Source: an uncultured Pelagibacteraceae bacterium (GTDB lineage Bacteria > Pseudomonadota > Alphaproteobacteria > Pelagibacterales > Pelagibacteraceae). From it: a stretch of 64,000 nt of DNA. The DNA is taken from NCBI GenBank assembly GCA_902566805.1, contig CACFKJ010000001.1, positions 7,325-71,324 of the forward strand, read 5' to 3'. Below, one piece after another: positions 38,469 to 64,000 of this stretch. The translations under genes were made by a program, and so were the position numbers. Positions within the stretch are counted from its first letter, which is position 1; each line of letters starts with the position of its first letter. The notes under the pieces were generated by a model. That model worked only from the letters and a program-made list of their open reading frames with translations. It did no database searches and was not told the DNA's origin.

Positions 38469-38490
38469 TAAAACATTTAATTTAAAATAT

Positions 38491-38521
38491 AAGACCCGTC
38501 GCTTTTACAGCGGCGGGTTTT
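38491..38521. terminator. Terminator hairpin between convergent NCS1 and allA
   Basis: AAGACCCGTCGCT-tttac-AGCGGCGGGTTTT. Confidence 0.8.
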
Positions 38522-39014
38522 AAAAATTTAGAATAATTTCCTCTTTATCTAATTCTTCGATAACTAAATTGTTTCCAGGTCCTTTTCTATCTACAACAAG
38601 AAAATTCATATTCTCTGTAGAAATCAAAGGAAAATGCCAAGTACCTGGATTATAATTCACTCCTAAACCTTTTGGAATTACAAAGGATTCAATCTTGTTT
38701 AAATCTGGCTTGTCACCCTGTGGTGCCACAAGAACTATAAATGTAGTTTCTTTCATTGGTATGAATGCTTGACTTCCAAGAGGATGTTTTTCCATCATAT
38801 CAATTTTCATTGGGAATGTTCGTTTAATAGCAGAAAAAATGCTAATTGTAGTTTCTCCATTATCATTTTTAGTGTCTAAATTTGCTATATTATCATATCT
38901 TTTTGCGTAACCATTATTAATACCAATCGGTTTCAAACCATTTGTTGAAATAATATCACCAAATTTTAAAAAATTTTTATTATTTATTTCAATTGGTGTT
39001 ATATTTTTTTTCAT
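38520..39014 (-). CDS. allA: Ureidoglycolate lyase
   Basis: FGDII, MMEKHPLGSQAFIP, GVNYNPGTWH, VVDRKG..NL. Confidence 0.93.
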   Translation of the reverse strand: MKKNITPIEINNKNFLKFGDIISTNGLKPIGINNGYAKRYDNIANLDTKNDNGETTISIFSAIKRTFPMKIDMMEKHPLGSQAFIPMKETTFIVLVAPQGDKPDLNKIESFVIPKGLGVNYNPGTWHFPLISTENMNFLVVDRKGPGNNLVIEELDKEEIILNF

Positions 39015-40006: not shown

Positions 40007-40012
40007 TTTAAT

Positions 40013-40921
40013 TTAAATATTTGAGTAATTTTTTATCCAATGCTTAGCAATATCTACTCTTTTGCAAATCCAAACATTTTTTTTAAATTTTAAAACATAA
40101 TTTAAAAATTTTTTAAGTGATTGAATTCTTCCTGGTCTTCCTATTAATCTACAGTGCAATCCTACAGACATCATCTTAGGACTGCTTTTTCCTTCTTCGT
40201 ACAGAGCATCAAAACTATCCTTTAGGTAATTATAAAACTGTTCACCGCTGTTAAATCCTTGGTTTGTTGCAAATCTCATATCATTATTATCTAAAGTATA
40301 AGGAATAATTAACTGTTTTTTTTTGTTTCTATATTCCCAGTATGGTAAATCATCACTGTAAGAATCACTATCATACAGAAATCCACCTTCATTTATTACA
40401 AGATCTCTTGTATTGGGACTGCATCTTCCAGTATACCAACCTAACGGTCTTTGTCCAAAAATTTTTTTTATTATTTTTATTGAAAGTTGCATATGTTTTT
40501 TCTCAGTAGATTTTTTAATATTTTGATAATCTATCCATCTCCATCCATGTGATGCAACTTCGTAATTACCATTTTTAATTGCTTTACAAATTTCTGGGTT
40601 TCTCTCTAAGGCCATAGCCACTCCGAATATAGTTATTGGAATTTTTTTTTCTTTGAATAATTTATGAAGTCTCCAAAAACCTCTTCTTGATCCATATTCA
40701 TAAATTGACTCCATATTTATATGCCTTCCTTTTATTGGTTTGGCACCAATTATTTCAGAGAGAAATGATTCAGAGTATTTATCTCCATGCAATACGCAAT
40801 TCTCAGCTCCCTCCTCGTAGTTAAGTACTATTTGTAATGCAAGCCTTGCTTTATTTGGCCAAACAACTTTAAAGTTTTTTGAACCATAGCCAATTATATT
40901 TCTTGGATAATTTTTTGGCAT
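40013..40921 (-). CDS. puuE: Allantoinase PuuE (polysaccharide deacetylase fold)
   Basis: NYEEGAE..HGD..SE, ESIYEYGSR, HGWRW, GWYTGR, GLHCRLIGRPGR. Confidence 0.94.
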   Translation of the reverse strand: MPKNYPRNIIGYGSKNFKVVWPNKARLALQIVLNYEEGAENCVLHGDKYSESFLSEIIGAKPIKGRHINMESIYEYGSRRGFWRLHKLFKEKKIPITIFGVAMALERNPEICKAIKNGNYEVASHGWRWIDYQNIKKSTEKKHMQLSIKIIKKIFGQRPLGWYTGRCSPNTRDLVINEGGFLYDSDSYSDDLPYWEYRNKKKQLIIPYTLDNNDMRFATNQGFNSGEQFYNYLKDSFDALYEEGKSSPKMMSVGLHCRLIGRPGRIQSLKKFLNYVLKFKKNVWICKRVDIAKHWIKNYSNI

Positions 40922-40923
40922 TA

Positions 40924-41697
40924 TTATTTAAATTTTTTCATTTTATTTAACGGTTTTAGTTCGAGCTTGTTAGATACAAGAGTTTGTTTAATAGATCTTG
41001 CAGTTGCAAGAGAACTTTTATTATCTCCATGTATACAAATTGAGTCAATTTCACAAGGAATTTGTTTTCCTGAAAGACAGTTTAGTGCTTGATTCTGAAC
41101 CATCTTTAAAACGTGCAATTTACATATATCTGGATCAACAATAAGAGCGTTGTCTTTTTTCCTTGATACCAAATTTCCGTCGTCTTCATAATTTCTATCT
41201 GCAAAAATTTCACACGCTACTTTCATTTCCAGTTTATTTGCAGCTTGTTGCATTTTGGATCCTGTTGGCACCAAATAGATTAAATCTTTATTAATTCCTT
41301 TTATTGTCTCTGCAATAGTTGTTGCAAGCTCAATGTCTTCACATGCCATATTATTTAGAGCACCGTGTGGTTTAATATGAGTGACATTTTCACCATTATT
41401 TGACGCTATTTTTTGTAAAATTTCATATTGATCTATTATTAATCTTTTTATTTCATCTGAACTTAAATTCATTCTTTTTCTTCCAAAGTTATCAGGATCT
41501 TTAAAAGATGGGTGAGCCCCTATACTTACTCCGTTATGCTTTGATATTTTAATGACTTCTTTCATAGTGTCTTCGTCACCCGCATGATATCCACAGGCCA
41601 CGCTGGCAGAATTAACTATTCCTAGTAATTCAGGGTCATTTTTATTTGAGTGCAATTTAGATTTTTCACCTAAATCACAATTGATATTAATTTCCAT
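40924..41697 (-). CDS. pxpA: 5-oxoprolinase subunit A (LamB/YcsF)
   Basis: NCDLGE, ACGYHAGD, GAHPS, HIKPHGAL, EIFADR, CIHGD; ATG 41697 preferred. Confidence 0.9.
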   Translation of the reverse strand: MEININCDLGEKSKLHSNKNDPELLGIVNSASVACGYHAGDEDTMKEVIKISKHNGVSIGAHPSFKDPDNFGRKRMNLSSDEIKRLIIDQYEILQKIASNNGENVTHIKPHGALNNMACEDIELATTIAETIKGINKDLIYLVPTGSKMQQAANKLEMKVACEIFADRNYEDDGNLVSRKKDNALIVDPDICKLHVLKMVQNQALNCLSGKQIPCEIDSICIHGDNKSSLATARSIKQTLVSNKLELKPLNKMKKFK

Positions 41698-41725
41698 ATT
41701 ATTAATACTACTAGTATAACATGTC

Positions 41726-42400
41726 ATGATAAAAAAAATATCAAATCTTGGAGACTCCGCATTATATTGCGATTTTGGTGACGAAGTTAATCAATTAATA
41801 AATTCGAGAGTAATAAAAGTTTTTAAAAATTTAAGAAAAAATATGATTAAAGGTGTAACTAATATTACACCATCTTACAACAAATTAATTATTTCGTTTG
41901 ATTTAGATATTATCAATTTTGAACAACTGAAGGAAAAAATAACCCTAATGAAAATACAGGATATCGAGGAAGATGGTACAAAAGTAGTTGAGATACCAAT
42001 ATGTATAGATGAGGAATTTTCTCTAGATTTAAGCAGAATATCAAAAAAATTAAATATTGATGAAAATGATGTAATTAAGGTTTTCCTTTCTAAAGAATAT
42101 TTTTGTTATATGACAGGATTTATTGCTGGAATGCCCTTTATGGGTGATATCAATAAAAATTTAAGACTGAATAGATTAGAAACTCCAAGAGTAAAAGTAC
42201 CAAAAGGATCTGTTGGTATCACAGAACAATTTTGCAATATATATACCTATGAGAGTCCAGGAGGATGGAATGTTATAGGCAATACTCCTTCAAAAATTTT
42301 TGATAAATTTAATTTTAACAATCCATTAAAAATAAAGCCCGGGGACAAAGTTATTTTTTATCAAATAAATAAAAAAAAATATTTAAATTGGAATGAATAA
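41726..42400 (+). CDS. pxpB: 5-oxoprolinase subunit B (AHS1/KipI-like)
   Basis: LGDSAL, PSY, GFIAGMP, PRVKVPKGSVG, SPGGWNVIG. Confidence 0.88.
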   Translation: MIKKISNLGDSALYCDFGDEVNQLINSRVIKVFKNLRKNMIKGVTNITPSYNKLIISFDLDIINFEQLKEKITLMKIQDIEEDGTKVVEIPICIDEEFSLDLSRISKKLNIDENDVIKVFLSKEYFCYMTGFIAGMPFMGDINKNLRLNRLETPRVKVPKGSVGITEQFCNIYTYESPGGWNVIGNTPSKIFDKFNFNNPLKIKPGDKVIFYQINKKKYLNWNE

Positions 42401-43343
42401 AAAAGCTTATTTTGAAATTTTAAGACCGGGAATTAATTCTACGTTACAAGATATAGGAAGACAAAATCAATACCATATAGGTATACCATTTAGTGGCGCT
42501 ATGGATAAAAGAAACTATCTAATAGGCAATCAACTAGTATCAAATAAATTAGAAAAACCTGTTATTGAATTTGCTTTTCAAGGTCCTAGACTTAAATTGA
42601 AATTTGGCGAAGTAACTTGTGCGATTACTGGGAACGTATCTTTTAATATTATTAAAAAAAATAAGACGCTAACTGGTCAATGTTATGAAACCTTTAATAT
42701 AGGCATGGATGATGAAATTGATATTTTATCAACAAATAAATCAGTTTATGGATATTTAGCAGTTAATAACGGTTTTGAAGGAGAAAGTTTTTGGGGAAGC
42801 TATTCAGTAAATACTAAAGCAAAAATAGGATCTAATAATGGAGAAAAGTTTTCTAAAAATGAAAAGATATATTTAGCTGATAACAAATGTATATCTAATA
42901 AAAAAAAAATAAGTTATATAAATTCTAAAATCGAATACATAAGAGTTTTAGAGGGTACAAATTTTAATTATTTTTCAAAAGAAGCTACCAAAATTTTTTT
43001 TAATAATAAATTTATTGTGTCTAAACTTTCAGATAGAATGGGCATGCGACTTGAGGGTCTTAAAATAGAGAATAAAGTTAGTACTAATATTAAATCAGAA
43101 GGATTAATAAAAGGAGTTATACAGGTACCTGCAGATGGCAAACCTATAATAATGTTATCTGATCATGGAACAATTGGAGGATACCCTAAAATAGCCGTAG
43201 TTATATCGGCTGACTATGATAGAATTGTCCAATCTGTCCCTGGATCAAATATTAAATTTAAATTAGTCAATTTATCTGAAGCAGAAAATTTATATAAACT
43301 TTATAATATGGAAACACAAAATATTTTAAGTCAAATTAGATGA
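42393..43343 (+). CDS. pxpC: 5-oxoprolinase subunit C (AHS2/KipA-like)
   Basis: LQDIGR, SGAMD, SDRMGMRL, QVPADGKPII..TIGGYPKI. Confidence 0.88.
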   Translation: MNKKAYFEILRPGINSTLQDIGRQNQYHIGIPFSGAMDKRNYLIGNQLVSNKLEKPVIEFAFQGPRLKLKFGEVTCAITGNVSFNIIKKNKTLTGQCYETFNIGMDDEIDILSTNKSVYGYLAVNNGFEGESFWGSYSVNTKAKIGSNNGEKFSKNEKIYLADNKCISNKKKISYINSKIEYIRVLEGTNFNYFSKEATKIFFNNKFIVSKLSDRMGMRLEGLKIENKVSTNIKSEGLIKGVIQVPADGKPIIMLSDHGTIGGYPKIAVVISADYDRIVQSVPGSNIKFKLVNLSEAENLYKLYNMETQNILSQIR

Positions 43344-44206
43344 ATTTTATTTTAAAAACACCTGGTCCACTTTTAGTTTTTCTAGGAGCTTGCTGTCTTA
43401 GTTTTGGAGGATTAATAGTTAAATCTTTTGAAGGTTCAACTTTGTGGCAAATATTATTTTGGAGATCAATTTTTTTTTCAATTACTATATTATTATTTCT
43501 AGTTTTTACTTATAAATTAAAATTTATAAATTCCATTTTTAAATCTGGAATTCCAGGTTTGCTTGGAGGTTTTATATTATCTCTTGGATACGCAGGTTAT
43601 GTATTTGCTATGTATAATACCACTGTTGCTAATGCTAATTTTATAATTCAAACTCAAACTATATTTTTAGCAATCTTTGGATATTTTTTTCTTAAGGAAA
43701 AAATAAATAAATTAACTCTAGCATCAATAGTTTTGGCTTTTGCCGGTATATTTTTGATGCTTGGAAATTCTTTAACACCTGGACAAATAGAAGGGAATAT
43801 AGCTGCATTTATAATGCCCATATCTTTTGCAGTATTAATTTTGATTGTAAGAAAATATCCGAATATAGATATGATACCCTTACAATTAATCGCAGGTATT
43901 GGAGCGTTATTAATTGGATATATAATGTCGCCTAAAATTATAATTTCTTCCCATGATATTTTTTTGGGATTTATTGCGGGTTTTTTTCAAGTGGGATTTG
44001 GTTTTATATTAATTACTATTGGAGCAAGAACTACTGCAGCAGCACTAGTGGGTATCATTATGCTAACTGAAGCTGTACTTGGACCTCTCTGGGCATGGTT
44101 ATTCATTAGTGAAAAACCACCAATAGTTGTTTTGATAGGAGGATCCATAGTCATTGGAGCAGTTCTACTTCAACTTGCTAACCGCAAAGTAGAAAAAAAA
44201 ATTTAA
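43340..44206 (+). CDS. DMT/EamA transporter
   Basis: 10 TM, duplicated EamA (FFLKE, LTEAVLGPLW). Confidence 0.88.
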   Translation: MNFILKTPGPLLVFLGACCLSFGGLIVKSFEGSTLWQILFWRSIFFSITILLFLVFTYKLKFINSIFKSGIPGLLGGFILSLGYAGYVFAMYNTTVANANFIIQTQTIFLAIFGYFFLKEKINKLTLASIVLAFAGIFLMLGNSLTPGQIEGNIAAFIMPISFAVLILIVRKYPNIDMIPLQLIAGIGALLIGYIMSPKIIISSHDIFLGFIAGFFQVGFGFILITIGARTTAAALVGIIMLTEAVLGPLWAWLFISEKPPIVVLIGGSIVIGAVLLQLANRKVEKKI

Positions 44207-50846: not shown

Positions 50847-53621
50847 TTAGGCTCTTCTTACTTCTGCTTTATTTTTTTCAGTTTCAACTTCAGTTTTAAA
50901 CATATTCGAAATTTTTTGAACTTCTACCGAAGAAACTTTATATTCCGCACATTTAGTTTCCTCATCTTTACCATGTCCAGTTACCATGTTAACCATATGT
51001 TCTGGAAAGTGGAATGTTGTGAAGACTATACCTTCTTTTACTTTATCAGTTACCTCTACTTTTAAAGATACTTCACCTCTCCCAGAATAAAGTCTTGCAA
51101 CATCTCCTGAATTAAGTTCTCTGTATTTAGCATCATTAGGATGTACTAGAAGCACATCTTCATCAACAATATCAATATTATTTGTTCTTCTAGTCATTGT
51201 AGCTGCGTTATAGTGTTGTAATACTCTGCTTGTTGTTAGTATCAGTGGATAATCTTTTTTATTATTCGCAATTTCAGTACTTTCTTTCCAATCAAAGTAT
51301 TTAATTCTTCCTTTTCCTAGTTTAAATTCTTTTTCGTGAAGGATTTTTGTATCTGTCCCATCTTCTTTTACTGGCCATTGCAATCCTAGTTTACCAAGTC
51401 TTTCTCTAGTTATACCTTTGAAGAAAGGCACTATATCTGCAATTTCCTCTAATACTTGATCAGCATCATATGTTGGTTGATTGTATCCAAGCTTTTGCAT
51501 CATTTCGGTTACAATCACTCCATCAGGTTTTGTGCCTGGCAAAGGTTCAGCAGCTTTATTAACTCGCTGTACTCTTCTTTCTGTATTTGTAAATGTACCA
51601 TCTTTTTCTAAAAAAGTTGTACCTGGCAATACCACATCAGCGTGCTTTGCTGTTTCACTTAGAAATATTTCTTGTACGACTAATAAATCTAAAGCATTCA
51701 TTGCTTGAGCTACGTGTGCACTATTAGGGTCTGTCTGAACAACATCCTCACCAATAATCCAAAGAGCTTTTACTTCTTTGTTTATTGCGGCATCAAATAT
51801 TTCGGGGATTTTTAAACCTGCCTTAGTTGGATGAACAACACCATATTTTTCAGTATAAAAATCTTGAACTTTTTTTTCAGCTACTGGAAAATAACCAGCA
51901 CCTTGATGGGGTTGGCACCCCATATCCGCAGCGCCTTGAACATTATTTTGTCCTCTTAAAGGGTTAACTCCAACTCCTCTTCTTCCTATATTTCCTGTTA
52001 TCATTGCTAGATCTGCAATTAGCATGACTGTTTTAGAGCCTTGTTCATGCTCTGTCACACCAAGACCATGAAATTCCATTGAATTTTTTGCAGTCGCATA
52101 CGCAATTGCTGCTTCTTTAACTTGTTGCTTGTCCACACCTGCTACTTTAGCTAAATGATTTATGTCTAATTTTTTAATTCCTTCAACAAAATTTTCAAAT
52201 CCTTCTGTTCTATTTAAAATAAAATCTTCTTTATATAGTTTTGAAGTAACAATAAAATAAAGCATCATGTTTAATACGGCAACGTTGGTGCCAGGTCTAA
52301 GTCTAATATGGTAATCTGCAAGTTTGGCCAGATCTGTTGTTATTGGATCCAAAACAATAAGTTTTTTCCCTTTCATTACTTGCTGTTTAATTTTTGCTCC
52401 AGTTACAGGATGAGCATTTGTTGGGTTTGCTCCAATTACTAAAAATAAATCAGCATGATAAATATCCTCAGTTGAATTAGTTGCTGCTCCAGTTCCAAAT
52501 GTTTGCTGCATTCCCCATGCAGTTGGTGAATGACAAATTCTAGCACAACAGTCTATATTATTAGTTCCAATTACAGCTCTTATCATTTTTTGGAAAACAT
52601 AATTTTCCTCATTAGTACATCTTGCAGATGAAATACCTGCTATAGCATCTGGTCCATTTTCTTTTTTAATTTTATTTAATTTATTTTTTATAAATTCATA
52701 TGCCTCATCCCAAGAAGACTCTACAAATTTTCCATTTCTTTTAATTAAAGGTGTTTTTAATCTGTCTTTATGATCATAAAATCCAAAAGCGTACCTTCCT
52801 TTTAAACAAGTATGTCCAGCATTAACTTCAGTTTCTTTTGGAGTATCAATCGAAACTACTTTTCCATCTTTAATAGACGCTTCTAAATTACATCCTACTC
52901 CACAGTAAGAACAAGTCGTTCTAACTTTCTTGTCATAATCTGCTGATTTTGAAGCGAACACATCTGATATGGCATCGGTCGGACAGGTATGTGCACATGC
53001 ACCACAAGAAACGCACGATGAGTCTCCAAATAGCATATCATTATCCGTCGTAATCCTAGATTCAAAACCTCTCCCACTCATAGTTAAAACAAAAGATCCT
53101 TGTATCTCATCACAAGCTCTTACGCATCTTCCACAATTAATACAATTATCTAGATTCATTCTCATGTAAGAATGAGAAGTATCTTTTGGTATACCATTAT
53201 TTTGTTTTGGATTATTATATCTGTGTTCCTTGATACCAAGATCATTTGCAACATCTTGAAGTTCACAGTTATTATTAACTTCACAAGTACCACAATTCAT
53301 TGGGTGATCTGTTAAAACTAATTCAACTATATTTTTTCTTAATTTTTTTAATTCATCATTTGTTGTAAATATATGTTGGCCCTCACCAACAGGTGTATGA
53401 CAAGAAGCTACCACTTTAGTTGGACCATCTTTTTCTAAAGCAACTTCAACTGAACATATTCTACACGCACCGTATGGGGCTAAATTAGGATCATCACATA
53501 ATGTAGGAACTTTTTTTTCACCTAAATAGCTTTTAACAAATTTTAATATTGATGTATGATTTGGACCTATTTCATGAGGTTTACCATCTATATAAGCAAT
53601 TTTTCTTTTTTCTGAACTCAT
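50847..53621 (-). CDS. fdhF: NAD-dependent formate dehydrogenase alpha subunit (Mo/W-bisPGD, Cys ligand)
   Basis: N-terminal Fe-S domains (CINCGRCVRAC, CVSCGACAHTCP), CSYCGVGC, ARICH, RGQNNVQG. Confidence 0.95.
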   Translation of the reverse strand: MSSEKRKIAYIDGKPHEIGPNHTSILKFVKSYLGEKKVPTLCDDPNLAPYGACRICSVEVALEKDGPTKVVASCHTPVGEGQHIFTTNDELKKLRKNIVELVLTDHPMNCGTCEVNNNCELQDVANDLGIKEHRYNNPKQNNGIPKDTSHSYMRMNLDNCINCGRCVRACDEIQGSFVLTMSGRGFESRITTDNDMLFGDSSCVSCGACAHTCPTDAISDVFASKSADYDKKVRTTCSYCGVGCNLEASIKDGKVVSIDTPKETEVNAGHTCLKGRYAFGFYDHKDRLKTPLIKRNGKFVESSWDEAYEFIKNKLNKIKKENGPDAIAGISSARCTNEENYVFQKMIRAVIGTNNIDCCARICHSPTAWGMQQTFGTGAATNSTEDIYHADLFLVIGANPTNAHPVTGAKIKQQVMKGKKLIVLDPITTDLAKLADYHIRLRPGTNVAVLNMMLYFIVTSKLYKEDFILNRTEGFENFVEGIKKLDINHLAKVAGVDKQQVKEAAIAYATAKNSMEFHGLGVTEHEQGSKTVMLIADLAMITGNIGRRGVGVNPLRGQNNVQGAADMGCQPHQGAGYFPVAEKKVQDFYTEKYGVVHPTKAGLKIPEIFDAAINKEVKALWIIGEDVVQTDPNSAHVAQAMNALDLLVVQEIFLSETAKHADVVLPGTTFLEKDGTFTNTERRVQRVNKAAEPLPGTKPDGVIVTEMMQKLGYNQPTYDADQVLEEIADIVPFFKGITRERLGKLGLQWPVKEDGTDTKILHEKEFKLGKGRIKYFDWKESTEIANNKKDYPLILTTSRVLQHYNAATMTRRTNNIDIVDEDVLLVHPNDAKYRELNSGDVARLYSGRGEVSLKVEVTDKVKEGIVFTTFHFPEHMVNMVTGHGKDEETKCAEYKVSSVEVQKISNMFKTEVETEKNKAEVRRA

Positions 53622-55279
53622 TAATTTTCTTTTATAATATCATTTTTTAATTCGTCACCAAAATACTTTAAAATATTCATAATAGGAACAGGAATTGCTC
53701 CACATAAAGCACAAAGACATCCTTTTTTCATAGTAATAAGAAGCTCATTTAGTAACTTTAAGGGAATTTTTGCAGATTTATTCTTTACTTGGTCGAACAT
53801 CTCTTTTCCTCTATAAGACCCAAGTCTTCCAGGAAAACATTTTCCACATGATTCTTCTGCTGAAAATTCAAAAAGATGATGAATATAATCAATCATATTA
53901 AATTCTTCTGGTATACTTACAACACTGGCATGTCCAAGCATAAAACCCGCTGAAGTAAACTCTTGAAAATCTAAATTTAGATTATCTATTTCATTAGTAG
54001 GTACTACACCACCTAGTGGACCACCTATCTGAAATGCTTTAACTGGTTTTTTAAGTCCTCCTCCAAATTCATAAAATATTTTTTTCATTGAAGTACACAT
54101 ATCAACTTCATAAACACCAGGCTTATTAAAAAAACTATCTAAACAAACTAGTTTAGTACCAGCAGATTTTTTATTTCCTATTGCTGAAAACTTTTCTGCA
54201 CCATTAATTAAAATCCCACTTGCTGCAGCTAAAGTTTCAACATTGTTAACAACAGTTGGTTTTTTATATAATCCTTCAGTAACTGGAAATGGTGGTCTAA
54301 CATCTACTTCTGCTCTTCTACCTTCTATAGAAGCTATCAAAGCAGTTTCTTCTCCACAGATATATGCTCCTTGTCCAATACAAATATTTAAATCAAAAGA
54401 AAAACCTGAACCTAATATATTCTTTCCAAGTAAACCTGCTTCTTTTAATGAATTAATTGATCCATTAAGTGCTTCAATTGATTTAGGGTATTCACCTCTA
54501 ATATATAGAACACCTTCGTCACTTCCAATTACAAATCCACAAATAATCATTCCAAAAATTACTTTTAGAGGCTGATCTTCTAATAAGTATCTATCAGAAA
54601 ATGCACCAGAGTCTCCTTCATCAGCATTACAAATTACATATTTTTTTTCAGATTTTGCTTTACTACAAAAATCCCATTTCATTCCAGTAGGAAATCCAGC
54701 CCCACCTCTTCCAGAAAGATTAGATGATAATAGTGATTTTATAATATCTTTTTTTTCATGTTTTAAAAATTTACTTAAATTGTCTTTAAACTTTTCAATA
54801 TTAGATAATTTATCATCCATTAAAAAACTTGTTGTTGCATAACTTTTTGATATAAATTTTTCTTGAATAATTTCATCACCTTTTACTATTTGATCAATTT
54901 TTTGAATATCATTACCAGCGTAATTTTCACCATCATAATGAAAAGCATGATTTTCATAACAATAACCCAAGCAGAACATTTCTCCAACTTTATCATCCCC
55001 AAGTTTTTCTTGTAATTTCTTTTTAAGATTTTTCTGTGTGCCAGCGCACATGCAAGCACTTCCATTACATACAAAAGCTTTTTTTGATCTATGTTCAGGT
55101 CTTAAAAACTCATAAAAACTTTCAGCTCCATAAATTGTTGAGACACCAACATTATATTTGTCTGCTAGTTCTTTAAAACCTTCTCCATTTTTAGAATTAA
55201 TAGATCTTTCAGAAAGTTTTTGAAACAGATTATCTTTTAATCCTATTCTTCCTGATAATTTACTAATATTTTTAGACAT
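53621..55279 (-). CDS. Formate dehydrogenase NADH-binding subunit (NuoE-like + NuoF-like fusion)
   Basis: N-terminal CNGSAC..CLGYC; GRGGAGFP, CNADEGD, YICGEETAL, ESCGKCFPGR. Confidence 0.9.
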   Translation of the reverse strand: MSKNISKLSGRIGLKDNLFQKLSERSINSKNGEGFKELADKYNVGVSTIYGAESFYEFLRPEHRSKKAFVCNGSACMCAGTQKNLKKKLQEKLGDDKVGEMFCLGYCYENHAFHYDGENYAGNDIQKIDQIVKGDEIIQEKFISKSYATTSFLMDDKLSNIEKFKDNLSKFLKHEKKDIIKSLLSSNLSGRGGAGFPTGMKWDFCSKAKSEKKYVICNADEGDSGAFSDRYLLEDQPLKVIFGMIICGFVIGSDEGVLYIRGEYPKSIEALNGSINSLKEAGLLGKNILGSGFSFDLNICIGQGAYICGEETALIASIEGRRAEVDVRPPFPVTEGLYKKPTVVNNVETLAAASGILINGAEKFSAIGNKKSAGTKLVCLDSFFNKPGVYEVDMCTSMKKIFYEFGGGLKKPVKAFQIGGPLGGVVPTNEIDNLNLDFQEFTSAGFMLGHASVVSIPEEFNMIDYIHHLFEFSAEESCGKCFPGRLGSYRGKEMFDQVKNKSAKIPLKLLNELLITMKKGCLCALCGAIPVPIMNILKYFGDELKNDIIKEN

Positions 55280-55285
55280 TAAGTT

Positions 55286-56122
55286 TTATAATATAATTCT
55301 ATCTTTATTGGTGTAAATATTAAAACTGTTGTTTTTTACAAACCCCAAAATTGTCATACCAAATCTTTTTGCCAGGTCTATAGCAAGACTTGTTGGCGCA
55401 CCAACGCCTGCCATAATGCCAATATTTGACATTAATCCCTTTTGAACTAATTCAAAGTTAAGTCTGCCTGAACAAGCAATAAATTGAGAATGATTATCAA
55501 TTAATTTTTTTTTTTGAGTGAAGCCAATTAATTTATCTAGAGCGTTATGTCTTCCTACATCTTCTCTTGTTGCGATTACATTTCCTGACTCATCAATTAA
55601 GCAGCTCGCATGTATTCCTCCAGTTTTAGAAAATTCTGATTGTTCTTTTGATAGTAGATCTGGAGATTTCATAATTATATTTTTTTTTATTTTAGGAAAA
55701 GATAAGTTTAATTTTTCTTTTTTTGCTATTTCAACTGTATCAAGAGAGGTTTTGCCACAAACACCACAAGATGAGTTTGTTACAAAATTTCTTTTTAATT
55801 TATTTATATCAACATTTTCACTTTTGTTTATTTTTGCTATAATTTTATTTTGTATGTTGTAATCACCAACTTTATCCCCAGCTTTTTCAATAGTATCAAT
55901 TTCAGATATATCCTCTATTATTCTTTCGTTAAATAGAAACCCAGCTAAAAGATCTTCATCATGCCCAGGAGTTCTCATTGTTATTGATATATTTTCATTT
56001 ATCCATTTACCATTTTTCTGAAATTGCAAGTTCATCTCCAGAGGTTCTTCAACTGAAATTAAATCTTTAATTTCCTCTACATTATTATCTTTGTATTTTG
56101 TAATATTATATTTAATGTCCAT
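55286..56122 (-). CDS. fdhD: FDH sulfurtransferase FdhD
   Basis: MRTPG, SSCGVCG, TGGIHA, REDVGRHNALDKLIG. Confidence 0.95.
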   Translation of the reverse strand: MDIKYNITKYKDNNVEEIKDLISVEEPLEMNLQFQKNGKWINENISITMRTPGHDEDLLAGFLFNERIIEDISEIDTIEKAGDKVGDYNIQNKIIAKINKSENVDINKLKRNFVTNSSCGVCGKTSLDTVEIAKKEKLNLSFPKIKKNIIMKSPDLLSKEQSEFSKTGGIHASCLIDESGNVIATREDVGRHNALDKLIGFTQKKKLIDNHSQFIACSGRLNFELVQKGLMSNIGIMAGVGAPTSLAIDLAKRFGMTILGFVKNNSFNIYTNKDRIIL

Positions 56123-56587
56123 TTAAATAGGATATTTCTTTTTTAAAATAAATCGATTTAAAATTATACCAAAAAACAGAATAATAATTGATCCACATAT
56201 AATTGGATTAATTAAATATTCAAAAGATACCCCTCCCATTATTACTATAATAGGATTTCCTCCAGCAGGAGGATGAGTTATATTGAAAATAATCATCAAG
56301 CTAACACCTAAACCTACTGCGAGTGGTAGTAAAATGTAAAGTGGTAAGGGAATAAAGTTTAAGCAAAAAATACCAATCAGAGAAGTTACTAAGTGACCAA
56401 AAAAAATATTTTTTGGTTGTGCGAATGGACTTTCAGGATATCCATATAACAGTACCATAGATGAACCAAAAGAAGCTATCAGAAATATTCCAAAAATTGT
56501 TTTATATGTCAAAAAAGTAAGCACACCAATCGTAATAGCCGAAAACAATCCAGCAAAAAAAGATTTTTTTAAATCATCTTTATTCAT
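56123..56587 (-). CDS. HPP family membrane protein
   Basis: ASFGSS..PESPFAQP..GH, THPPAGG. Confidence 0.9.
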   Translation of the reverse strand: MNKDDLKKSFFAGLFSAITIGVLTFLTYKTIFGIFLIASFGSSMVLLYGYPESPFAQPKNIFFGHLVTSLIGIFCLNFIPLPLYILLPLAVGLGVSLMIIFNITHPPAGGNPIIVIMGGVSFEYLINPIICGSIIILFFGIILNRFILKKKYPI

Positions 56588-56591
56588 TTAA

Positions 56592-56987
56592 TTATCGTAA
56601 AGCTTTTATTAGTGCTTTAAAAGGTAATTTTAAGCATTCTTTCCTAGATATATTTTTTTCACTGAACAATCTGTTAAAGGTTGACCATTCTCCTGGAAAT
56701 TTCAAAGTTTTATCTTCAAAAAAATTATCAGCTATGTTTGTTATTTTTTTTATATTATTTATAGATTTATTTATCGATTTTCTTGACAACAGACTTACTG
56801 CAGCCTGGCAATATATGCATGATTTACATTGATATCCAAAATCTAAAATTTTATCTTTTTCAATTTTTATTGAAATTTGCATTTCATCTCCACATAAGGG
56901 ATTTTTATGTTTAGATGAATGGGTACAATTTTTGATAATTTTATTATTTTCAGTATTTGAAGCTATTTTTAAAATTTCTAAATCCAT
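56592..56987 (-). CDS. SufU/IscU (NifU-N)-like protein
   Basis: NPLCGD, SCIYCQA, RKECL. Confidence 0.82.
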   Translation of the reverse strand: MDLEILKIASNTENNKIIKNCTHSSKHKNPLCGDEMQISIKIEKDKILDFGYQCKSCIYCQAAVSLLSRKSINKSINNIKKITNIADNFFEDKTLKFPGEWSTFNRLFSEKNISRKECLKLPFKALIKALR

Positions 56988-57031
56988 TAAATATTCTTTA
57001 TTTAAAAAATTAATGATTTATATTTGTTTTC

Positions 57032-57646
57032 ATGGGCGAAAACAACATCTTAGCGACAATATTAGCCGGAGGTAAATCCAGAAGATTTGGAACAGATAAA
57101 AGTTTAGCAAAATTAGGAAATAAATCGCTTATAGATCATACAATAAGTAAAATAGAAAAAAATTTTTCAGAAATATTAATCGTCTCAAATAAGCAAATAA
57201 TCGATCAAAAAAAAAAAAATATAAATATTATTGAAGATTGTTTGCCAGGCCAACTTGGTCCACTAGTTGGTGTTTTATCAGCAATGAAATGGATAAAAAA
57301 AAATAGTAAAAATTATAATTGGGTTGCTACTTTTCCTTGTGATACACCTTTTTTTGATGATAAAATATTTTTTCATTTACAAAAAAAATCAAAAAAAAAA
57401 GATAATAAATTATATTTTTTTAAAACAGGTGAAAAAAGACATAATATATTTGGTTTATGGTCATTAGAATTAATAAATATATTAGAAGAAGATATAAAAA
57501 AAAATTTTAGAAAAGTTGAAACTTGGGCAAATAAAATAGGATTAGAATTAATTGAAATCGATGCAAAACAAGATGATACTTTTTTAAATATAAACACAAA
57601 AGATGATTTAGAAAAAGCTGAAAATAAATTAAAAGTAATAAAATGA
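57032..57646 (+). CDS. mobA: Molybdenum cofactor guanylyltransferase
   Basis: LAGGKSRRFG.DK, GPLVG, PCDTPF, FLNINT. Confidence 0.93.
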   Translation: MGENNILATILAGGKSRRFGTDKSLAKLGNKSLIDHTISKIEKNFSEILIVSNKQIIDQKKKNINIIEDCLPGQLGPLVGVLSAMKWIKKNSKNYNWVATFPCDTPFFDDKIFFHLQKKSKKKDNKLYFFKTGEKRHNIFGLWSLELINILEEDIKKNFRKVETWANKIGLELIEIDAKQDDTFLNINTKDDLEKAENKLKVIK

Positions 57647-58896
57647 TTTCTTATAGTAAAGCCCTAAATATATTAAAAAAAAATAAGATATTAATTAAGT
57701 CGGAAACTGTTTTATCCAAAGATTCAGTTGGTAGAGTTTCATCTAATAATATTTACTCTCCTTGCAATTATCCATCAGCAGACAATACAGCGTTTGATGG
57801 TTTTGCTATTAATTCTTTAGATACAAAAGATTTGAGCATTAAAAAAAAAAGAAAATTTAAAATAATAAAAACTTTAGCCGCAGGAGATAATCCAAATATT
57901 AAAAAAGTTAAAAAATTTAGTGTAATTGAGGTAATGACAGGGGCAATAATTAACAAACCTTTTAACTCGGTTATACCTATTGAAACTATAAAGTTTTATC
58001 CCAATAAAGGGAAACCAAATTTTATCATTGTAGATAAAAAAATAAAAAAATATGAACACTTAAGATTCAAAGGGTCTGATTATAAAAAAGGTGAAAAGAT
58101 TATAAGCAAAGGAGAAATTATAAAACCAAGTCACATTTTAGCTTTTAAGACGCTAGGTATAAAAAAATTATCAGTAAAGAAAATTCCTAAAATAATTTTT
58201 TATTCTACTGGGAACGAAATTACTAATAAATTAAATGTACCTAATTGGAAAATAAGAAATTCAAACAGTTATTATCTCAGATCCTTTTTAAAGAATATTC
58301 CAATATCTTTTAAGGAGCAAAATATACTAAGAGATAATGGTGAAAAAAAATTTAAAAATGAGATTAAACAAAATATTAAATTAAAGACAGATATAGTAAT
58401 TACATCAGGTGCTGTTTCTGCGGGTAAATTTGATTATGTTCCAAAAGTTATCAAAGATTTTAAAATCAAAAAAATGTTTAAAGGTGTATCCATAAGACCA
58501 GGAAAACCAATAATGTTTGCAAAATTTAAAAAAAAATTGATATTTTTTGGCTTACCAGGTAATCCAATTTCATCAGCAGCTTGTTTTAGATTTTTTGTAT
58601 TACCTTTTGTTTTTGCGTCATTAAACCTAAATTCTGATAAGAATTTTTATGCCATATTAAAAAAAAAATTTGTTAAAAAAAAATCATTTACAAGGTTTAT
58701 AAAAGGTAAGATTTCTTTTTCAAATTCAGGTTTAATTACTTTTGAGGTTCTTAAAGGGCAGGAGTCGTATAGAATAAATCCTTTTACTAAAACAAACGCA
58801 TGGGGTCTTTTTCCAAATACTAAAAGTATTTTTAAAAAAGGAGATTTACTAGAATGTTATTCACCATCTGGCATTAATGAACTATTAATAAAGTAA
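57643..58896 (+). CDS. moeA: Molybdopterin molybdotransferase
   Basis: AFDGFA, MTGA, STGNE, SGAVSAGKFD, RPGKP, GLPGNP. Confidence 0.94.
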   Translation: MISYSKALNILKKNKILIKSETVLSKDSVGRVSSNNIYSPCNYPSADNTAFDGFAINSLDTKDLSIKKKRKFKIIKTLAAGDNPNIKKVKKFSVIEVMTGAIINKPFNSVIPIETIKFYPNKGKPNFIIVDKKIKKYEHLRFKGSDYKKGEKIISKGEIIKPSHILAFKTLGIKKLSVKKIPKIIFYSTGNEITNKLNVPNWKIRNSNSYYLRSFLKNIPISFKEQNILRDNGEKKFKNEIKQNIKLKTDIVITSGAVSAGKFDYVPKVIKDFKIKKMFKGVSIRPGKPIMFAKFKKKLIFFGLPGNPISSAACFRFFVLPFVFASLNLNSDKNFYAILKKKFVKKKSFTRFIKGKISFSNSGLITFEVLKGQESYRINPFTKTNAWGLFPNTKSIFKKGDLLECYSPSGINELLIK

Positions 58897-58940: not shown

Positions 58941-59846
58941 ATGCCTGATATAAAAAATCCCAAATTTGCAATCCCAATTGTTTTATTTGCAGGTCTATTT
59001 TGGTCATTTGGTCCATATGTTGTTAGACATATAAGCGAAGCTCATACAGTTCCATGGCAGTATTTATTTACTAGAGGATTGGTGATATTTATCTTATTAA
59101 ATATCTATCTATTCTTAGAAGAAGGAATTGAATTTTACAAAAATTACCTAAAAATTGGTTTATCAGGTTTAATTGGTGGTATCGGTTTAGGAATAGCCAT
59201 GACAACATTTATTTGGTCGATAACAAATACATCAGCAGCAATAACTCTTTTATGTTTAGCAGCAATGCCATTTATAACGGCATTACTTGGATTTTTATTT
59301 CTTAAGGAAAATATTTCAACTAGTGTATGGGTTTCCATATTTATTTCTACAATCGGAATTATTATTATGGCATTCGGAAATAACAATTCAGGTTCATTTT
59401 TCGGATTTATTTTTGGAATGCTTTCATCCTTAGGTTTTGCAGTTTTTTCAGTGAGTCTTAGATGGAGAAAGGATACTCCAAAATTTACTACAGTTGCAAT
59501 TGCAGGTTTATTTTGTGTTTTACTCTCTGGGATAATAATTCTTTCTAGCGAAAGTAGTTTTCTATCATCAGGAAAAAATCAATCTTTATTTGCAACACAT
59601 GGCACACTAGTATGTTGTGGTCTTATACTTTATTCAATTGGTTCAAAACATATTCCAGCTGCAGAATTAACATTGTTATCTTTAACTGAAGTTATAGGTG
59701 GAATATTTTGGGTTTGGTTACCTTGGTTAGGAATTAATGAAATCCCTTCAACAAATACAATTATTGGTGGTTTCTTTATTTTTATAGCTTTATTTTATTA
59801 TAGTTTGATTATGAAAACTAATAAAAGATTCATAGGACTAAATTAA
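58941..59846 (+). CDS. DMT/EamA transporter
   Basis: 10 TM, duplicated EamA (FLFLKE, LSLTEVIGG). Confidence 0.88.
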   Translation: MPDIKNPKFAIPIVLFAGLFWSFGPYVVRHISEAHTVPWQYLFTRGLVIFILLNIYLFLEEGIEFYKNYLKIGLSGLIGGIGLGIAMTTFIWSITNTSAAITLLCLAAMPFITALLGFLFLKENISTSVWVSIFISTIGIIIMAFGNNNSGSFFGFIFGMLSSLGFAVFSVSLRWRKDTPKFTTVAIAGLFCVLLSGIIILSSESSFLSSGKNQSLFATHGTLVCCGLILYSIGSKHIPAAELTLLSLTEVIGGIFWVWLPWLGINEIPSTNTIIGGFFIFIALFYYSLIMKTNKRFIGLN

Positions 59847-59852
59847 AACTTT

Positions 59853-61070
59853 ATGGAGAGACCAGATTTTTTTAAGCTTGAGAATGGCGAAAAAGTAAAA
59901 TTACCATTTACCGACAAAGAATATCAAAATAGATTATCTAAACTAAGAACAGTTATGTCAAACCAAGGTATGGATATGGTAATCTTAACTTCAATGCATA
60001 ACATTGCCTATTATACAGGTTTTATTTATTGTTCCTTTGGACGTCCTTATGGATGTCTAGTGACAGAAAACAAAATTGTAACAATTTCAGCAAATATTGA
60101 TGCAAGTCAACCATGGAGAAGATCACATTGTGAAAACATAATTTATACTGATTGGAAAAGAGACAATTTCTTAAAAGCAATTGTATCAATTATTGGCAGA
60201 GATGAACCTCCAAAAACCATAGGTATTGAAAATGATCACATAACTTTAGAAATAAAAAACAAATTAAACTCTATTTTTCCTGATTCAATTTTTAAAAATA
60301 TTGCAAATCATTTAATGAAATTACGAATGATTAAATCTGATGAAGAAATCGAAATTATTAAAAACGGAGCACGAATTGCTGATTTAGGAGCAGAAGAAAT
60401 TGTAAAAAATATAAAGCCAGGTCAAACAGAAATTGAAATTGCAATTGCTGGAAGAGATCGGATGGAAAGAGAGATTGCCAAAACATATCCCAATGCAGAA
60501 TATATGGATACATGGGTATGGTTCCAGTCGGGAATTAATACAGATGGCGCACACAACCCAAAGACAAATAGAGCTTTGAAAAAAGGAGATATTTTATCTT
60601 TAAATACATTTCCCATGATATCGGGGTATTACACAGCTCTTGAGAGAACTTTGTTTGCTGAAGAGATTGATGACGATTCACTTAAAGCTTGGGAAGCAAA
60701 TGTAAAAGTACATAAAAGAGGGTTAGAATTAATTAAACCTGGTGTTAAATGTTCTGAAGTTTGCGAGGAACTAAACGATTTATTTGCTCAACTAGAATAC
60801 CTTCAGTATAGAACTTTTGGTTATGGGCACTCATTTGGAATGTTATCACACTTTTATGGAAGGGAGGCAGGTCTAGAACTTAGAGAAGATATTGACACAA
60901 TTCTTGAAAAAAATATGGTTATTTCAATGGAACCAATGATAATGATACCAGAAGGAAAACCAGGAGCTGGCGGATACAGAGAACATGACATTCTGATTAT
61001 TACTGACAAAAGTGCTGAGAATATTACAAAATTTCCATTTGGACCTGAAAATAATATAATAAAAAATTAA
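59853..61070 (+). CDS. Creatinase (creatine amidinohydrolase)
   Basis: Near-identical blocks to Pseudomonas creatinase as I recall it: YCSFGRPY, QPWRR, YTDW, DTWVWFQSGINTDGAHNP, YYTALERT, GREAGLELREDI, GGYREHD. Confidence 0.93.
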   Translation: MERPDFFKLENGEKVKLPFTDKEYQNRLSKLRTVMSNQGMDMVILTSMHNIAYYTGFIYCSFGRPYGCLVTENKIVTISANIDASQPWRRSHCENIIYTDWKRDNFLKAIVSIIGRDEPPKTIGIENDHITLEIKNKLNSIFPDSIFKNIANHLMKLRMIKSDEEIEIIKNGARIADLGAEEIVKNIKPGQTEIEIAIAGRDRMEREIAKTYPNAEYMDTWVWFQSGINTDGAHNPKTNRALKKGDILSLNTFPMISGYYTALERTLFAEEIDDDSLKAWEANVKVHKRGLELIKPGVKCSEVCEELNDLFAQLEYLQYRTFGYGHSFGMLSHFYGREAGLELREDIDTILEKNMVISMEPMIMIPEGKPGAGGYREHDILIITDKSAENITKFPFGPENNIIKN

Positions 61071-62182
61071 TGCCTGAAAAAGTAAAAGTAAATAGTTGGA
61101 ATGAATGGGATCCGTTGAAACACGTGATTGTAGGAAGAGCTGATGGTACTTGTATTCCAGCACCAGAACCAGCTTTGGATGCAAAAGTACCAGAAGACTC
61201 CGATATGAGAGGTCAATACGGCCCAAGAACCAAAGATACAGTGGATAAAGCAAATGAACTTTTGGATAACTTTTCCTCAATTTTAGAAAAACGTGGAATA
61301 AAAGTAGATCGACCAACTCCAATTAATTTTAACCAAACAACCTCAACACCAGATTGGAAAGCTGAAACAATGTTCGGTTGCATGCCACCGAGAGATGTTC
61401 TGTTAACAGTTGGAAACGAAATTTTAGAAGCAACAATGAGTTATAGATGCAGATGGTTTGAATATCTTTGCTATAGACCTCTATTAAAAAAATATTATAA
61501 CGAAGATCCAAACATGAGACATGAGGCAGCTCCTAAGCCAAGACTAACTGATGCTGATTATAGGAAAGATTATTTATCGGATAAAATTGGAGTTCAAAAA
61601 AGACTTGAATGGACAGAAAAAAAGTTCTTTGTAACAACAGAGGAGGAGCCACTGTTTGATGCAGCTGATATTTTAAGATTTGGAAAAGATTTAGTCGTAC
61701 AACACGGATTTACAACAAATTTAAAAGGTATTGATTGGATAAAAAGACATTACAAAGATCACAGGGTTCATGCAGTTAACTTCCCAGGTGATCCATATCC
61801 TATTCATATAGATGCAACTTTTACACCTATTAAGGAAGGTTTAATAATAAACAATCCACAAAGAAGACTACCAAAGGAACAAAGAAAACTATTTGAAAAT
61901 AATGGCTGGAAAATTGTAGACTCGGCTCAACCTGCTCATAATTCACCACCACCGCTTTGTTATTCTTCAGTATGGCTTTCTATGAATGTTCTTGTGCTAG
62001 ATCCTAAGACAGTATGCGTTGAGAAAAGTGAAGTCTACCAAGCAGAGCAATTAGATAAATTAGGAATGGAAGTTATTCCAGTTGAACTTAGAGAAGCTTA
62101 TGCATTCGGAGGAGGACTTCATTGTTGCACTGCTGATGTTTATAGAGAAGGTGTTTTAAAAGATTATTTTCCTAAACAGTAA
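61070..62182 (+). CDS. Amidinotransferase (glycine amidinotransferase/AGAT-like)
   Basis: SWNEWDPL, MPPRD, FDAAD (Asp), IHIDATF (His), GGGLHCCT (Cys). Confidence 0.9.
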   Translation: MPEKVKVNSWNEWDPLKHVIVGRADGTCIPAPEPALDAKVPEDSDMRGQYGPRTKDTVDKANELLDNFSSILEKRGIKVDRPTPINFNQTTSTPDWKAETMFGCMPPRDVLLTVGNEILEATMSYRCRWFEYLCYRPLLKKYYNEDPNMRHEAAPKPRLTDADYRKDYLSDKIGVQKRLEWTEKKFFVTTEEEPLFDAADILRFGKDLVVQHGFTTNLKGIDWIKRHYKDHRVHAVNFPGDPYPIHIDATFTPIKEGLIINNPQRRLPKEQRKLFENNGWKIVDSAQPAHNSPPPLCYSSVWLSMNVLVLDPKTVCVEKSEVYQAEQLDKLGMEVIPVELREAYAFGGGLHCCTADVYREGVLKDYFPKQ

Positions 62183-62410
62183 TTAATTTGGATTTTGTTT
62201 TAAGAATTCAATATATTTTATAACTTCTTCATAATTTTCGTCAGGTATATCTTTATAACTAGCATTAAACTTGCTTTTTACACATATGGCCACATGTGCA
62301 TATGCATTTCTTCCTTTTGGATGATTTGGATGGTCAGGTAATTGACCTTGTAAATAATCACCAGCTTCCTGAATAATTTTCCAAAGTTTACTTGCGTTTT
62401 CTTTGTTCAT
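62183..62410 (-). CDS. Small conserved hypothetical protein (75 aa), ORF6C-like C-terminus
   Basis: ATG 62410; HPKGRNAYAHV..KFNASYKDIPDENYEEVIKYI. Confidence 0.7.
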   Translation of the reverse strand: MNKENASKLWKIIQEAGDYLQGQLPDHPNHPKGRNAYAHVAICVKSKFNASYKDIPDENYEEVIKYIEFLKQNPN

Positions 62411-62417
62411 ACATTTC

Positions 62418-64000
62418 TTAATTTCCAAGCGCTTCTTTTGCCTCTTCAACTGTATAGTTTGTTCCATATTGTTTGTTATAAGCTGCAACAGCTTCGGCAA
62501 AACTACCATAGCCTAATCCTTGTGCAGCAGCTTCTAAATCTGTAGAAACACCAACTGATGCTGCTAAAGCAATACTATCAGCAACTGTTTGTAAATCAGT
62601 CCCTAAACTTTTTGCAATTGATGCTGCCTCGAATGAACCAACTTGACTTAGTAAATCAACTCCTCTTGTAATATCGCCCCAATTAGATGTAGAACCAATT
62701 ACAGCTGCACCTTCCCAGTAACTCGCATATTCTTGTGCGGACATATTTGTTCCATATTGATAATTTGTTAGATGTGTTAGATTTTCAAAATTAGCATTAT
62801 CTCTAATTAATTTTATAGTGTTTGCATCAAGTAAATTTCCATAATTAGATATTTGGCTTTCAACTGCAAGTTTAACATAGTTGTCTAATGTTATTGAAAA
62901 TTCCTGATTTAACCAAGAGTCTAAATTAAAGCCTTTTATTGAATTTTTGACGATTTGAGAAATTTCATTCATCGACTCATTTATTTCAAAAGTAGATTTA
63001 TCAATCATTGTACTGAAATTATTGATAGCTAACTGCGCTTTTAGATCCTGTATATTTTCAGCAGATAATTTGATTAAATTACCTTTTTTATCTTTGATAT
63101 TATCTGTCGGAATTTGACCTCTCCAAGAATTGGCCCAATCTTCAGTTTTCCAATTTTTCATATTGTTAATATTATTAAATGACATTGCTACTGATTTAAT
63201 ATCAAATCCATCACTTTCAAATTTAACAAGATATTCTTCAACAGGATAATTATTGTATATTAGATTTAAAATTGAACTTTGTAATTTTTTATTATCAATT
63301 TCTTTCTGTTTTTTTAAACTTAATGAAGCCATAGCCAATGTATCTTTAACATTATCTGATAAAGTTTCTATCTCTATGTGACTTAAGTCATGAGTATAAT
63401 TTTTTTTTATTAGATTTTTTTCAAAATCCTTTATTGCAGTATTTATAAATTGATTACTATCAATTACAGTTAATAAATCTTTACGGGTACAATTGTAATT
63501 ACAATTTTCAATTATACTTAAAGACGATTCAAACATTTCTTTTACTATTTTATAAGGCTTTGAAATGCTATTATTTATTATTGATAATCTTTGCAAAATA
63601 TTTTTAATTTTCGTAATATTTTTTTTTAAATCTTTTTCAAAATCTTTTTGGGTGATTCTTTTTTCACTTTTATTTTCAATAGTTTTTATAAAAGTACTGT
63701 AGTATTTTTTGAAACTATTGCTAAGTTTTTTAATTTCTTTCTGGTTTTTATTTAATTTGTTAGCGGATCTTATTCCTTTTGATAAAAATTCATACATATG
63801 CATGTATTTTCTTAAAGCTTGCTCAATATCATCATTATTAGTCAGGCCAATAGATTTTCGCATAGATATTCTAGCTTGATTTAGCGTATACAAAGTTTTA
63901 ATTTTTTTTTTTGTTTTTTTATTTATGTTTGGGTAGTTAGCTTTAAATCGATCAATAAATTTTTTATCATCTTTAAGTTTTTGCATATAGAAAACTTCAA
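62418..64000 (-). CDS. Large hypothetical protein (5'-truncated by window edge) with repeated NxQYGTN motif at C-terminus
   Basis: Frame stays open past 63986 (..EVFYMQ); Lys-rich helical N-part, Ala-rich C-terminus. Confidence 0.75.
   Translation of the reverse strand, partial: EVFYMQKLKDDKKFIDRFKANYPNINKKTKKKIKTLYTLNQARISMRKSIGLTNNDDIEQALRKYMHMYEFLSKGIRSANKLNKNQKEIKKLSNSFKKYYSTFIKTIENKSEKRITQKDFEKDLKKNITKIKNILQRLSIINNSISKPYKIVKEMFESSLSIIENCNYNCTRKDLLTVIDSNQFINTAIKDFEKNLIKKNYTHDLSHIEIETLSDNVKDTLAMASLSLKKQKEIDNKKLQSSILNLIYNNYPVEEYLVKFESDGFDIKSVAMSFNNINNMKNWKTEDWANSWRGQIPTDNIKDKKGNLIKLSAENIQDLKAQLAINNFSTMIDKSTFEINESMNEISQIVKNSIKGFNLDSWLNQEFSITLDNYVKLAVESQISNYGNLLDANTIKLIRDNANFENLTHLTNYQYGTNMSAQEYASYWEGAAVIGSTSNWGDITRGVDLLSQVGSFEAASIAKSLGTDLQTVADSIALAASVGVSTDLEAAAQGLGYGSFAEAVAAYNKQYGTNYTVEEAKEALGN

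Follow-up and report, generated by a model that had tools for sequence, protein, structure and literature searches.

A conserved transporter, creatinase and amidinotransferase gene block of Pelagibacter with a candidate role in guanidino-compound salvage

We analyzed a 64,000-nucleotide stretch of DNA from an uncultured Pelagibacteraceae bacterium (GenBank assembly GCA_902566805.1, contig CACFKJ010000001.1, forward-strand positions 7,325 to 71,324; hereafter the window), focusing on three co-directional genes for a membrane transporter, a creatinase and an amidinotransferase (AT) related to vertebrate arginine:glycine amidinotransferase (AGAT). The features of this block are the following:

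58941..59846, + strand: EamA/DMT-family membrane transporter, 301 aa (PF00892, E=2.8e-19)
59853..61070, + strand: creatinase (creatine amidinohydrolase), 405 aa (533.6 bits to 1CHM)
61068..61072, + strand: TAATG stop/start overlap between creatinase and AT, read from the sequence
61070..62182, + strand: AGAT-type amidinotransferase (AT), 370 aa (289 bits to human AGAT)

The transporter stop codon ends at 59846 and the creatinase ATG lies at 59853, leaving a 6-bp gap, while the last base of the creatinase stop codon TAA (61068-61070) is also the first base of the AT start. A sequence-only reading of the same DNA had described this layout, which the letters confirm, and had named the three genes as the matches to PF00892, 1CHM and human AGAT also name them. 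Its assignment to SAR11 was likewise correct: the host genome belongs to Pelagibacter (74% complete) and the nearest named loci are all from Pelagibacteraceae.

The second gene is, on its sequence, a true creatinase. Its best matches in the Protein Data Bank (PDB) are the creatinases 1CHM (533.6 bits), 7YTO (507) and 1KP0 (491), whereas the best prolidase scores 93 bits, and the motifs SFGR, DGAHN, YTALER, YGREAG and SMEP, which we take to have catalytic roles, are identical to those of solved creatinases. The transporter is less informative. PF00892 is matched in two stretches, which places the protein in the EamA family, but it falls below every NCBIfam cut-off; in the PDB it matches LicB alone, and weakly (E=9e-5), and no characterised close relative was found. 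The neighbours of its nearest match were uninformative. It may import a guanidino compound.

The third gene is an AGAT-type amidinotransferase with an intact active site. Its best PDB match is human AGAT (289 bits), followed by SxtG (221), HsvA (204) and StrB1 (173), with 31-38% identity to the last three. A structure model built on a 58-row alignment (predicted local distance difference test, 95) superposes on 4JDW with a TM-score of 0.91 and a root-mean-square deviation of 1.8 at 41% identity. TM-scores of the model range from 0.86 to 0.92 to amidinotransferases versus ~0.6 to ADI/DDAH, which places its five-fold beta-beta-alpha-beta fold with the former. The enzyme shares this fold with vertebrate AGAT/GATM (EC 2.1.4.1; 1JDW, 4JDW), whose Cys407/His303/Asp254 align with the triad C352/H246/D197. 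AGAT residues Asp170 and Asp305 are also kept (guanidinium-binding D109 and D248), as are Arg322, Ser354 and Ser355 (R265, S299 and S300). The triad and the guanidinium aspartates are present in 118-119 of the 119 clade members, defined as relatives at ≥70% identity.

Specificity is another matter. The flap positions govern specificity in human AGAT, CyrA and AmtA, according to the available text of PMC4887976 and PMC3684758. The SAR11 flap is DPYPIH, compared with DIFPS in CyrA and DMHPM in AmtA, and is specific to the clade, with Y243 and I245 in 118/119 relatives. Asn300/Met302 of vertebrate AGAT are thus replaced by Y243/I245, a pair that differs from Phe245/Ser247 of CyrA as well, and Trp352-Met353 is replaced by C297-Y298. 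Because the flap departs from all three enzymes at these positions, the acceptor of AT is not readable from its sequence. The pocket is fixed across the clade, which suggests one selected substrate.

CyrA/AoaA, AmtA, SxtG, StrB1 and HsvA belong to the same enzyme family as the SAR11 AT. Its clade differs from these secondary-metabolite enzymes in being a housekeeping-like conserved gene of marine Alphaproteobacteria. Many of its homologues carry the NCBI name 'serine/threonine protein kinase', a misannotation that would hide them from text searches. AT is near-universal in Pelagibacter, yet carries only a database label. No functional study of it was found in the literature, most subscription papers lying outside the search.

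We examined the distribution of the block in two draws of genomes. In a first draw of 61 genomes, AT was found in 51 and creatinase in 14. Twelve of the 14 creatinases adjoin AT; genome G039 has both genes on different contigs, and in G006 (68% complete) a creatinase, with a truncated match, was detected and no AT was found. A second draw covered 201 genomes of the family (124 of the genus and 76 others; counts include G780). AT was present in 121/124 genus genomes and 3/76 others, and creatinase in 73/124 and 2/76, respectively. All 76 creatinase genomes of this draw (G000 included) possess AT, and coordinates place creatinase directly upstream of it in 74. Among 80 Pelagibacteraceae loci, 53 have the order DMT-AT, 24 the order DMT-creatinase-AT, two are truncated at the 5' end and one differs; the transporter gene is directly upstream of AT or creatinase in 77. 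This arrangement is not due to chance. The sequence-only reading had treated the three genes as one system, which the synteny survey does not support: creatinase is missing from 48 of the 121 AT-bearing genus genomes. From these distributions, the transporter and AT form the core of the block and creatinase is an optional member.

The genes downstream of AT vary. The most frequent is a threonine aldolase, next after AT in 48/80 loci; in the host genome (74% complete) it was found neither at the locus nor by tblastn. A single metagenome protein, P0201 (722 aa), has AT fused to threonine aldolase, which may reflect a lost stop codon or an assembly error. The sarcosine oxidase gene soxB was found in 124/125 AT genomes and AT in 1/55 soxB-less genomes, an association confounded by lineage. 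A few Pelagibacter genomes hold a second, longer-branched AT type at 75-77% identity (G004:C4:97954-99054, G027:C22, G777:C6:14144-15244 and G779:C4:59082-60182), with EamA, 2-oxoglutarate dioxygenase and luciferase-like genes as frequent neighbours.

Outside SAR11 the AT clade is rare, with six matches besides G413 in a draw of 401 genomes of the class. It was found in 41/201 genomes of a family whose Roseobacter-type nature was inferred from homologue names, at 75-82% identity and mostly as a stand-alone gene (neighbours examined in 32/41). AGAT-type enzymes of bacteria were said in the sequence-only reading to sit usually in secondary-metabolite clusters, and this clade departs from that pattern; the reading's statement that no biosynthetic cluster adjoins the block was accurate, as none was found in the window map or in the examined clade neighbourhoods. 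No AT relatives were found on viral contigs and no plasmid members above 56% identity. A 55% identical homologue in Photobacterium sp. DA100 (locus L194) has an EamA-like gene, a sodium:solute symporter and an AraC regulator in its vicinity, a neighbourhood that looks like an uptake module.

Adjacency of creatinase and AT was observed in four arrangements: the Pelagibacter operon, a reversed order in G667, a group with arginase and ornithine cyclodeaminase in G477, and a convergent pair in G549, G550 and G648. On a quick tree of 107 rows, the adjacency label requires eight changes, at least three of them forced by starred branches. Among Roseobacter-type genomes with both genes, the two are adjacent in 4/29, relative to ~0.04 expected, and these four cases probably represent two events. 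The sole AT copy of G004 lies inside an operon with BHMT-like and dimethylglycine-dehydrogenase-like genes, and the same operon is found in G000 without AT; in G619 a urease cluster lies near AT. Overall, the context of AT is one of guanidino and methylamine catabolism, with creatinase as its most frequent partner.

We further analyzed the metabolic setting in five genomes (G000, G013, G004, G037 and G038 for urease, with G413 in place of G038 for urea carboxylase, AstB, arginine deiminase and phosphagen kinase). A genome-wide search for urease, which the sequence-only reading had called for, found it in 0/5 genomes; the available text of PMC8437039 likewise reports no urease in either of its strains. 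Urea carboxylase and AstB were each found in 0/5 genomes, and arginine deiminase was not found in the same check. Phosphagen kinase (PF00217) was also found in 0/5, four of these genomes being 96-100% complete. In contrast to vertebrate AGAT, the SAR11 enzyme sits with a degradative creatinase, and neither guanidinoacetate methyltransferase (GAMT) nor creatine kinase was found: G000 has 12 PF08241 methyltransferase matches, and the two candidates compared with the PDB did not match GAMT. The GAMT label K00542 is also missing from the HTCC1062 table. Both argG and soxB were found in 5/5 genomes, and an agmatine deiminase family gene in 1/5 (G004), which may therefore free amidino nitrogen.

The status of arginase is less secure. 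All four ureohydrolases that were scored are agmatinase-like, with no arginase above the NCBIfam cut-off; that of G000 reaches 202 bits for agmatinase versus 105 for arginase, and its best PDB match is an agmatinase. However, this seems to be the gene labelled 'speB1 arginase' in SAR11 papers (PMC8437039, as far as its available text goes), so the absence of arginase is not firmly established. Loci L190 and L025 (contig G000:C9) carry genes for a decarboxylase and for a 1,9-bis(guanidino)-5-aza-nonane synthase (579 bits, above the cut-off) in a row with an agmatinase-type gene, which suggests a homospermidine route.

In these genomes, no route other than AT was detected by which amidino nitrogen could be kept. 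Since neither urease nor urea carboxylase was found, creatinase alone would lose this nitrogen as urea. The claim of the sequence-only reading that no urease is needed therefore stands for the AT branch and fails for creatinase, where two nitrogen atoms would be lost. The capture of nitrogen as arginine that it proposed would have a ceiling: amidino nitrogen amounts to 4.7% of encoded protein nitrogen (898 open reading frames, unweighted) and, because no route freeing ammonium was found, the gain would level off near arginine demand as long as arginine is not recycled. The pathway of Pseudomonas putida runs from creatinase (EC 3.5.3.3) to sarcosine oxidase, with urea passed to urease. The host likewise has creatinase and, elsewhere in its genome, sarcosine oxidase, but SAR11 differs in that urease and urea carboxylase were not found, creatinase is optional and it is coupled to AT.

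Published data indicate that the block is expressed. In the type strain HTCC1062, C134_0686-0689 are annotated as pepQ/creatinase, gatM and threonine aldolase (0687 creatinase, 0688 gatM, 0689 threonine aldolase), and creatinase, GatM and threonine aldolase were all detected as proteins (PMC3870248, Table S2). We treat them as orthologues on the basis of gene names and order, which are the same as in our window up to the threonine aldolase, present there and not in the host locus; the supplementary table gives only KEGG labels. Under nitrogen limitation, relative to replete stationary phase, the protein ratio was 1.44 for GatM (q=0.006) and 0.89 for creatinase (q=0.023), with 0.81 for ArgF, 0.56 for ArgE and 1.61 for the arginine binder (PMC3870248). 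These ratios fit an AT branch that keeps nitrogen. Rows for the three genes were not found in the supplements of PMC5069961. The block is a conserved and, judging from HTCC1062 orthologues, expressed set of genes from known enzyme families.

Several studies bear on the substrates. SAR11 creatinase has been described as an Ia core gene feeding glycine (PMC3686209), and creatine as a marine solute from phytoplankton and animals (PMC11366302). Amidinotransferases are reversible, and reversal of amidino transfer has been shown for AmtA (PMC4887976). In the field, 13C3,15N1-creatine was formed from labelled betaine, for which the authors proposed that an as yet unidentified enzyme turns sarcosine into creatine or that creatinase works reversibly (PMC9321204); an AT acting reversibly on creatine would give this label. 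For the import of arginine, SAR11 has a binding protein of 32 pM affinity (PMC11485210). The ligand list of that study, in its available part, names only phosphocreatine and therefore says nothing on creatine uptake.

These observations lead us to a reading in which AT probably salvages the amidino group of a donor, whichever it is, onto ornithine; the catabolic role advanced by the sequence-only reading is in this sense the most likely one. The donor, the direction and the role of the transporter are the parts that we infer. Our tentative first choice of donor is creatine, which would give arginine and sarcosine. In this scheme the cell would import a small guanidino compound, most likely creatine, and AT would pass its amidino group via C352 to ornithine, yielding arginine and sarcosine. 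The arginine would bypass the ArgF-ArgG-ArgH steps, and the sarcosine would be converted by the cell's sarcosine oxidase to glycine with one-carbon energy. Where present, creatinase would act as an overflow branch, supplying sarcosine beyond arginine demand at the cost of losing the amidino nitrogen as urea. We rank creatine first because the transporter and AT then constitute a complete unit, because the nesting of creatinase between them is explained as that overflow branch, and because this donor fits both the AT copy in the betaine operon and the field creatine label. It is possible, if speculative, that AT acts as an arginine:sarcosine (creatine:ornithine) amidinotransferase and so joins creatine and arginine in a single step without GAMT, that it is the sarcosine-to-creatine enzyme of PMC9321204, and that urease-less SAR11 keeps creatine nitrogen through it.

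If salvage takes place, a cell without urease keeps guanidino nitrogen, creatine-type compounds join the glycine sources of SAR11, and the betaine, creatine and arginine pools are tied together. Each arginine made de novo from ornithine takes two nitrogen atoms and some four high-energy phosphates. Since the nitrogen gain is modest (~5% of protein nitrogen), the glycine, the one-carbon energy and the ATP saved may count for as much. With sarcosine as the partner, the reaction would be new and would offer a candidate answer to the question raised in PMC9321204.

Several observations weigh against this interpretation. Creatine and sarcosine are not known to be substrates of vertebrate AGAT, and N-methylation would remove a hydrogen bond near Asp170. 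No structural feature favours an N-methylated substrate; a one-residue insertion before R108-D109 was considered a possible mark of an N-methyl pocket and rejected, as it also occurs in SxtG. Co-occurrence of AT and creatinase is not enriched across the 201 Roseobacter-type genomes (creatinase in 29/41 genomes with AT and 107/160 without; Fisher p=0.71). In G004 the transporter and the threonine aldolase remain at the usual locus, from which AT is absent. Neighbours of AT also point in other directions: the threonine aldolase of 48/80 loci, an arginine/opine ABC system divergent from AT in 9/9 loci examined of family f2, agmatinase-type hydrolase and polyamine-type ABC genes in G1108, G477 and G662, and TauD-like and thiamine-pyrophosphate enzymes in G779 and G027. 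The GatM change is small and is absent in exponential phase (0.99) and at the mRNA level (PMC3870248). Finally, the creatine label could arise in other ways, for instance from glycine and a labelled S-adenosylmethionine methyl group in a mixed community, and in Table S2 of PMC9321204 the 13C3,15N1 trend appears only for the northern experiment.

The donor named by the sequence-only reading was guanidinoacetate, with canonical AGAT running in reverse (guanidinoacetate and ornithine to glycine and arginine) and creatinase handling creatine separately. Nothing singles this donor out, and the neighbours point at least equally to creatine and sarcosine; we consider it somewhat unlikely. The closest solved relative is AGAT itself, and the aromatic Y243 at the Asn300 position (118/119) is reminiscent of Phe245 in CyrA, which is strictly an arginine:glycine enzyme (PMC4887976, PMC3684758), but the flap differs from CyrA too (I245 relative to S247). 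The threonine aldolase found after AT yields glycine, the product expected here, and the pairing of AT with creatinase and arginase in G477 would suit a second substrate. However, no paper was found on where SAR11 would obtain guanidinoacetate in seawater, and both the sarcosine-derived creatine label and the betaine-operon copy are left unexplained.

AT could also run forward, transferring from arginine to sarcosine or glycine and releasing ornithine for carbon or polyamines. The product would be exported by the transporter, many EamA proteins being exporters, or hydrolysed, AT and creatinase then amounting to an arginase with sarcosine recycled. Such a route would account directly for the creatine label, and it agrees with the import of arginine at 32 pM, with the f2 arrangement and with the lack of an arginase over the cut-off among the four ureohydrolases scored. 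Nevertheless it would waste nitrogen, yet AT goes up and creatinase down under nitrogen limitation, and in the 48 genomes that lack creatinase it would be a drain on glycine or sarcosine. In G477 a true arginase adjoins the pair, which would make such a bypass redundant, and as consumers of the product neither a GAMT label nor a phosphagen kinase was found. We regard the forward direction as unlikely.

Another guanidine/amine pair is quite unlikely, whether agmatine/putrescine as in HsvA, taurocyamine/taurine, homoarginine/lysine or a broad range, with creatinase as one of several nearby guanidino hydrolases. The agmatinase-type, polyamine-type ABC, TauD-like and ectoine-hydrolase-like neighbours are in line with it, SAR11 enzymes have been reported as multifunctional in the available text of PMC8437039, and a bioRxiv paper counts gatm as taurine-to-taurocyamine from its KEGG label only. 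Apart from the f2 ABC system, however, each such neighbour is confined to 1-3 genomes, compared with ~80 in which creatinase adjoins AT, and the invariant pocket suggests a single substrate. It is very improbable that the enzymes merely inserted at a variable site behind an unrelated transporter: the G004 locus, the variable downstream genes, the f2 and Roseobacter-type AT without this transporter nearby and the failure to find an orthologue in G477 and G549 are compatible with it, but the transporter-AT linkage holds in 77/80 loci and unrelated EamA genes, which are common, flank the second-type AT and the Photobacterium homologue.

Scans for regulatory elements gave little. No guanidine riboswitch or other Rfam family was detected near the block, the promoter scan was at shuffle level (35 found versus 30.9 expected), and the terminator scan returned nothing above chance. 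In RNA runs, at most 0.09 of the words were present; among relatives, contigs span the DMT-creatinase, creatinase-AT and DMT-AT junctions, but they come from runs with a small share and were not used as evidence for a single transcript. At its 3' end the block meets a small convergent open reading frame (window 62183-62464, - strand), which belongs to a conserved type of ~75-93 aa without Pfam or NCBIfam match that adjoins AT in several relatives in either orientation. Upstream, on the same strand and 44 bp from the transporter gene, lies the following feature, given as context and not shown to be co-transcribed:

57032..58896, + strand: mobA-moeA, formate dehydrogenase region (MoeA family matches; mobA via synteny)

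The name mobA follows from synteny with SAR11_0684-0685 (PMC3160333, available in part). These genes belong to a molybdenum formate dehydrogenase block (window 50847-58896; loci L027-L106), whose position is taken in many relatives by an NAD-dependent formate dehydrogenase, with the HPP and NifU-like genes retained. Beyond the small open reading frame, another of more than 520 aa (window 62418-63998, - strand) matches no Pfam family and is rich in alanine towards its C-terminus. A gene run at 36900-44206 resembles purine/allantoin use with 5-oxoprolinase-like subunits, which are the source of a partial urea carboxylase match. The Rfam small RNA SAR11_0636 lies at 24895-24984, adjoining umuD/umuC-like genes, and the region 13317-14084 resembles a proteorhodopsin gene.

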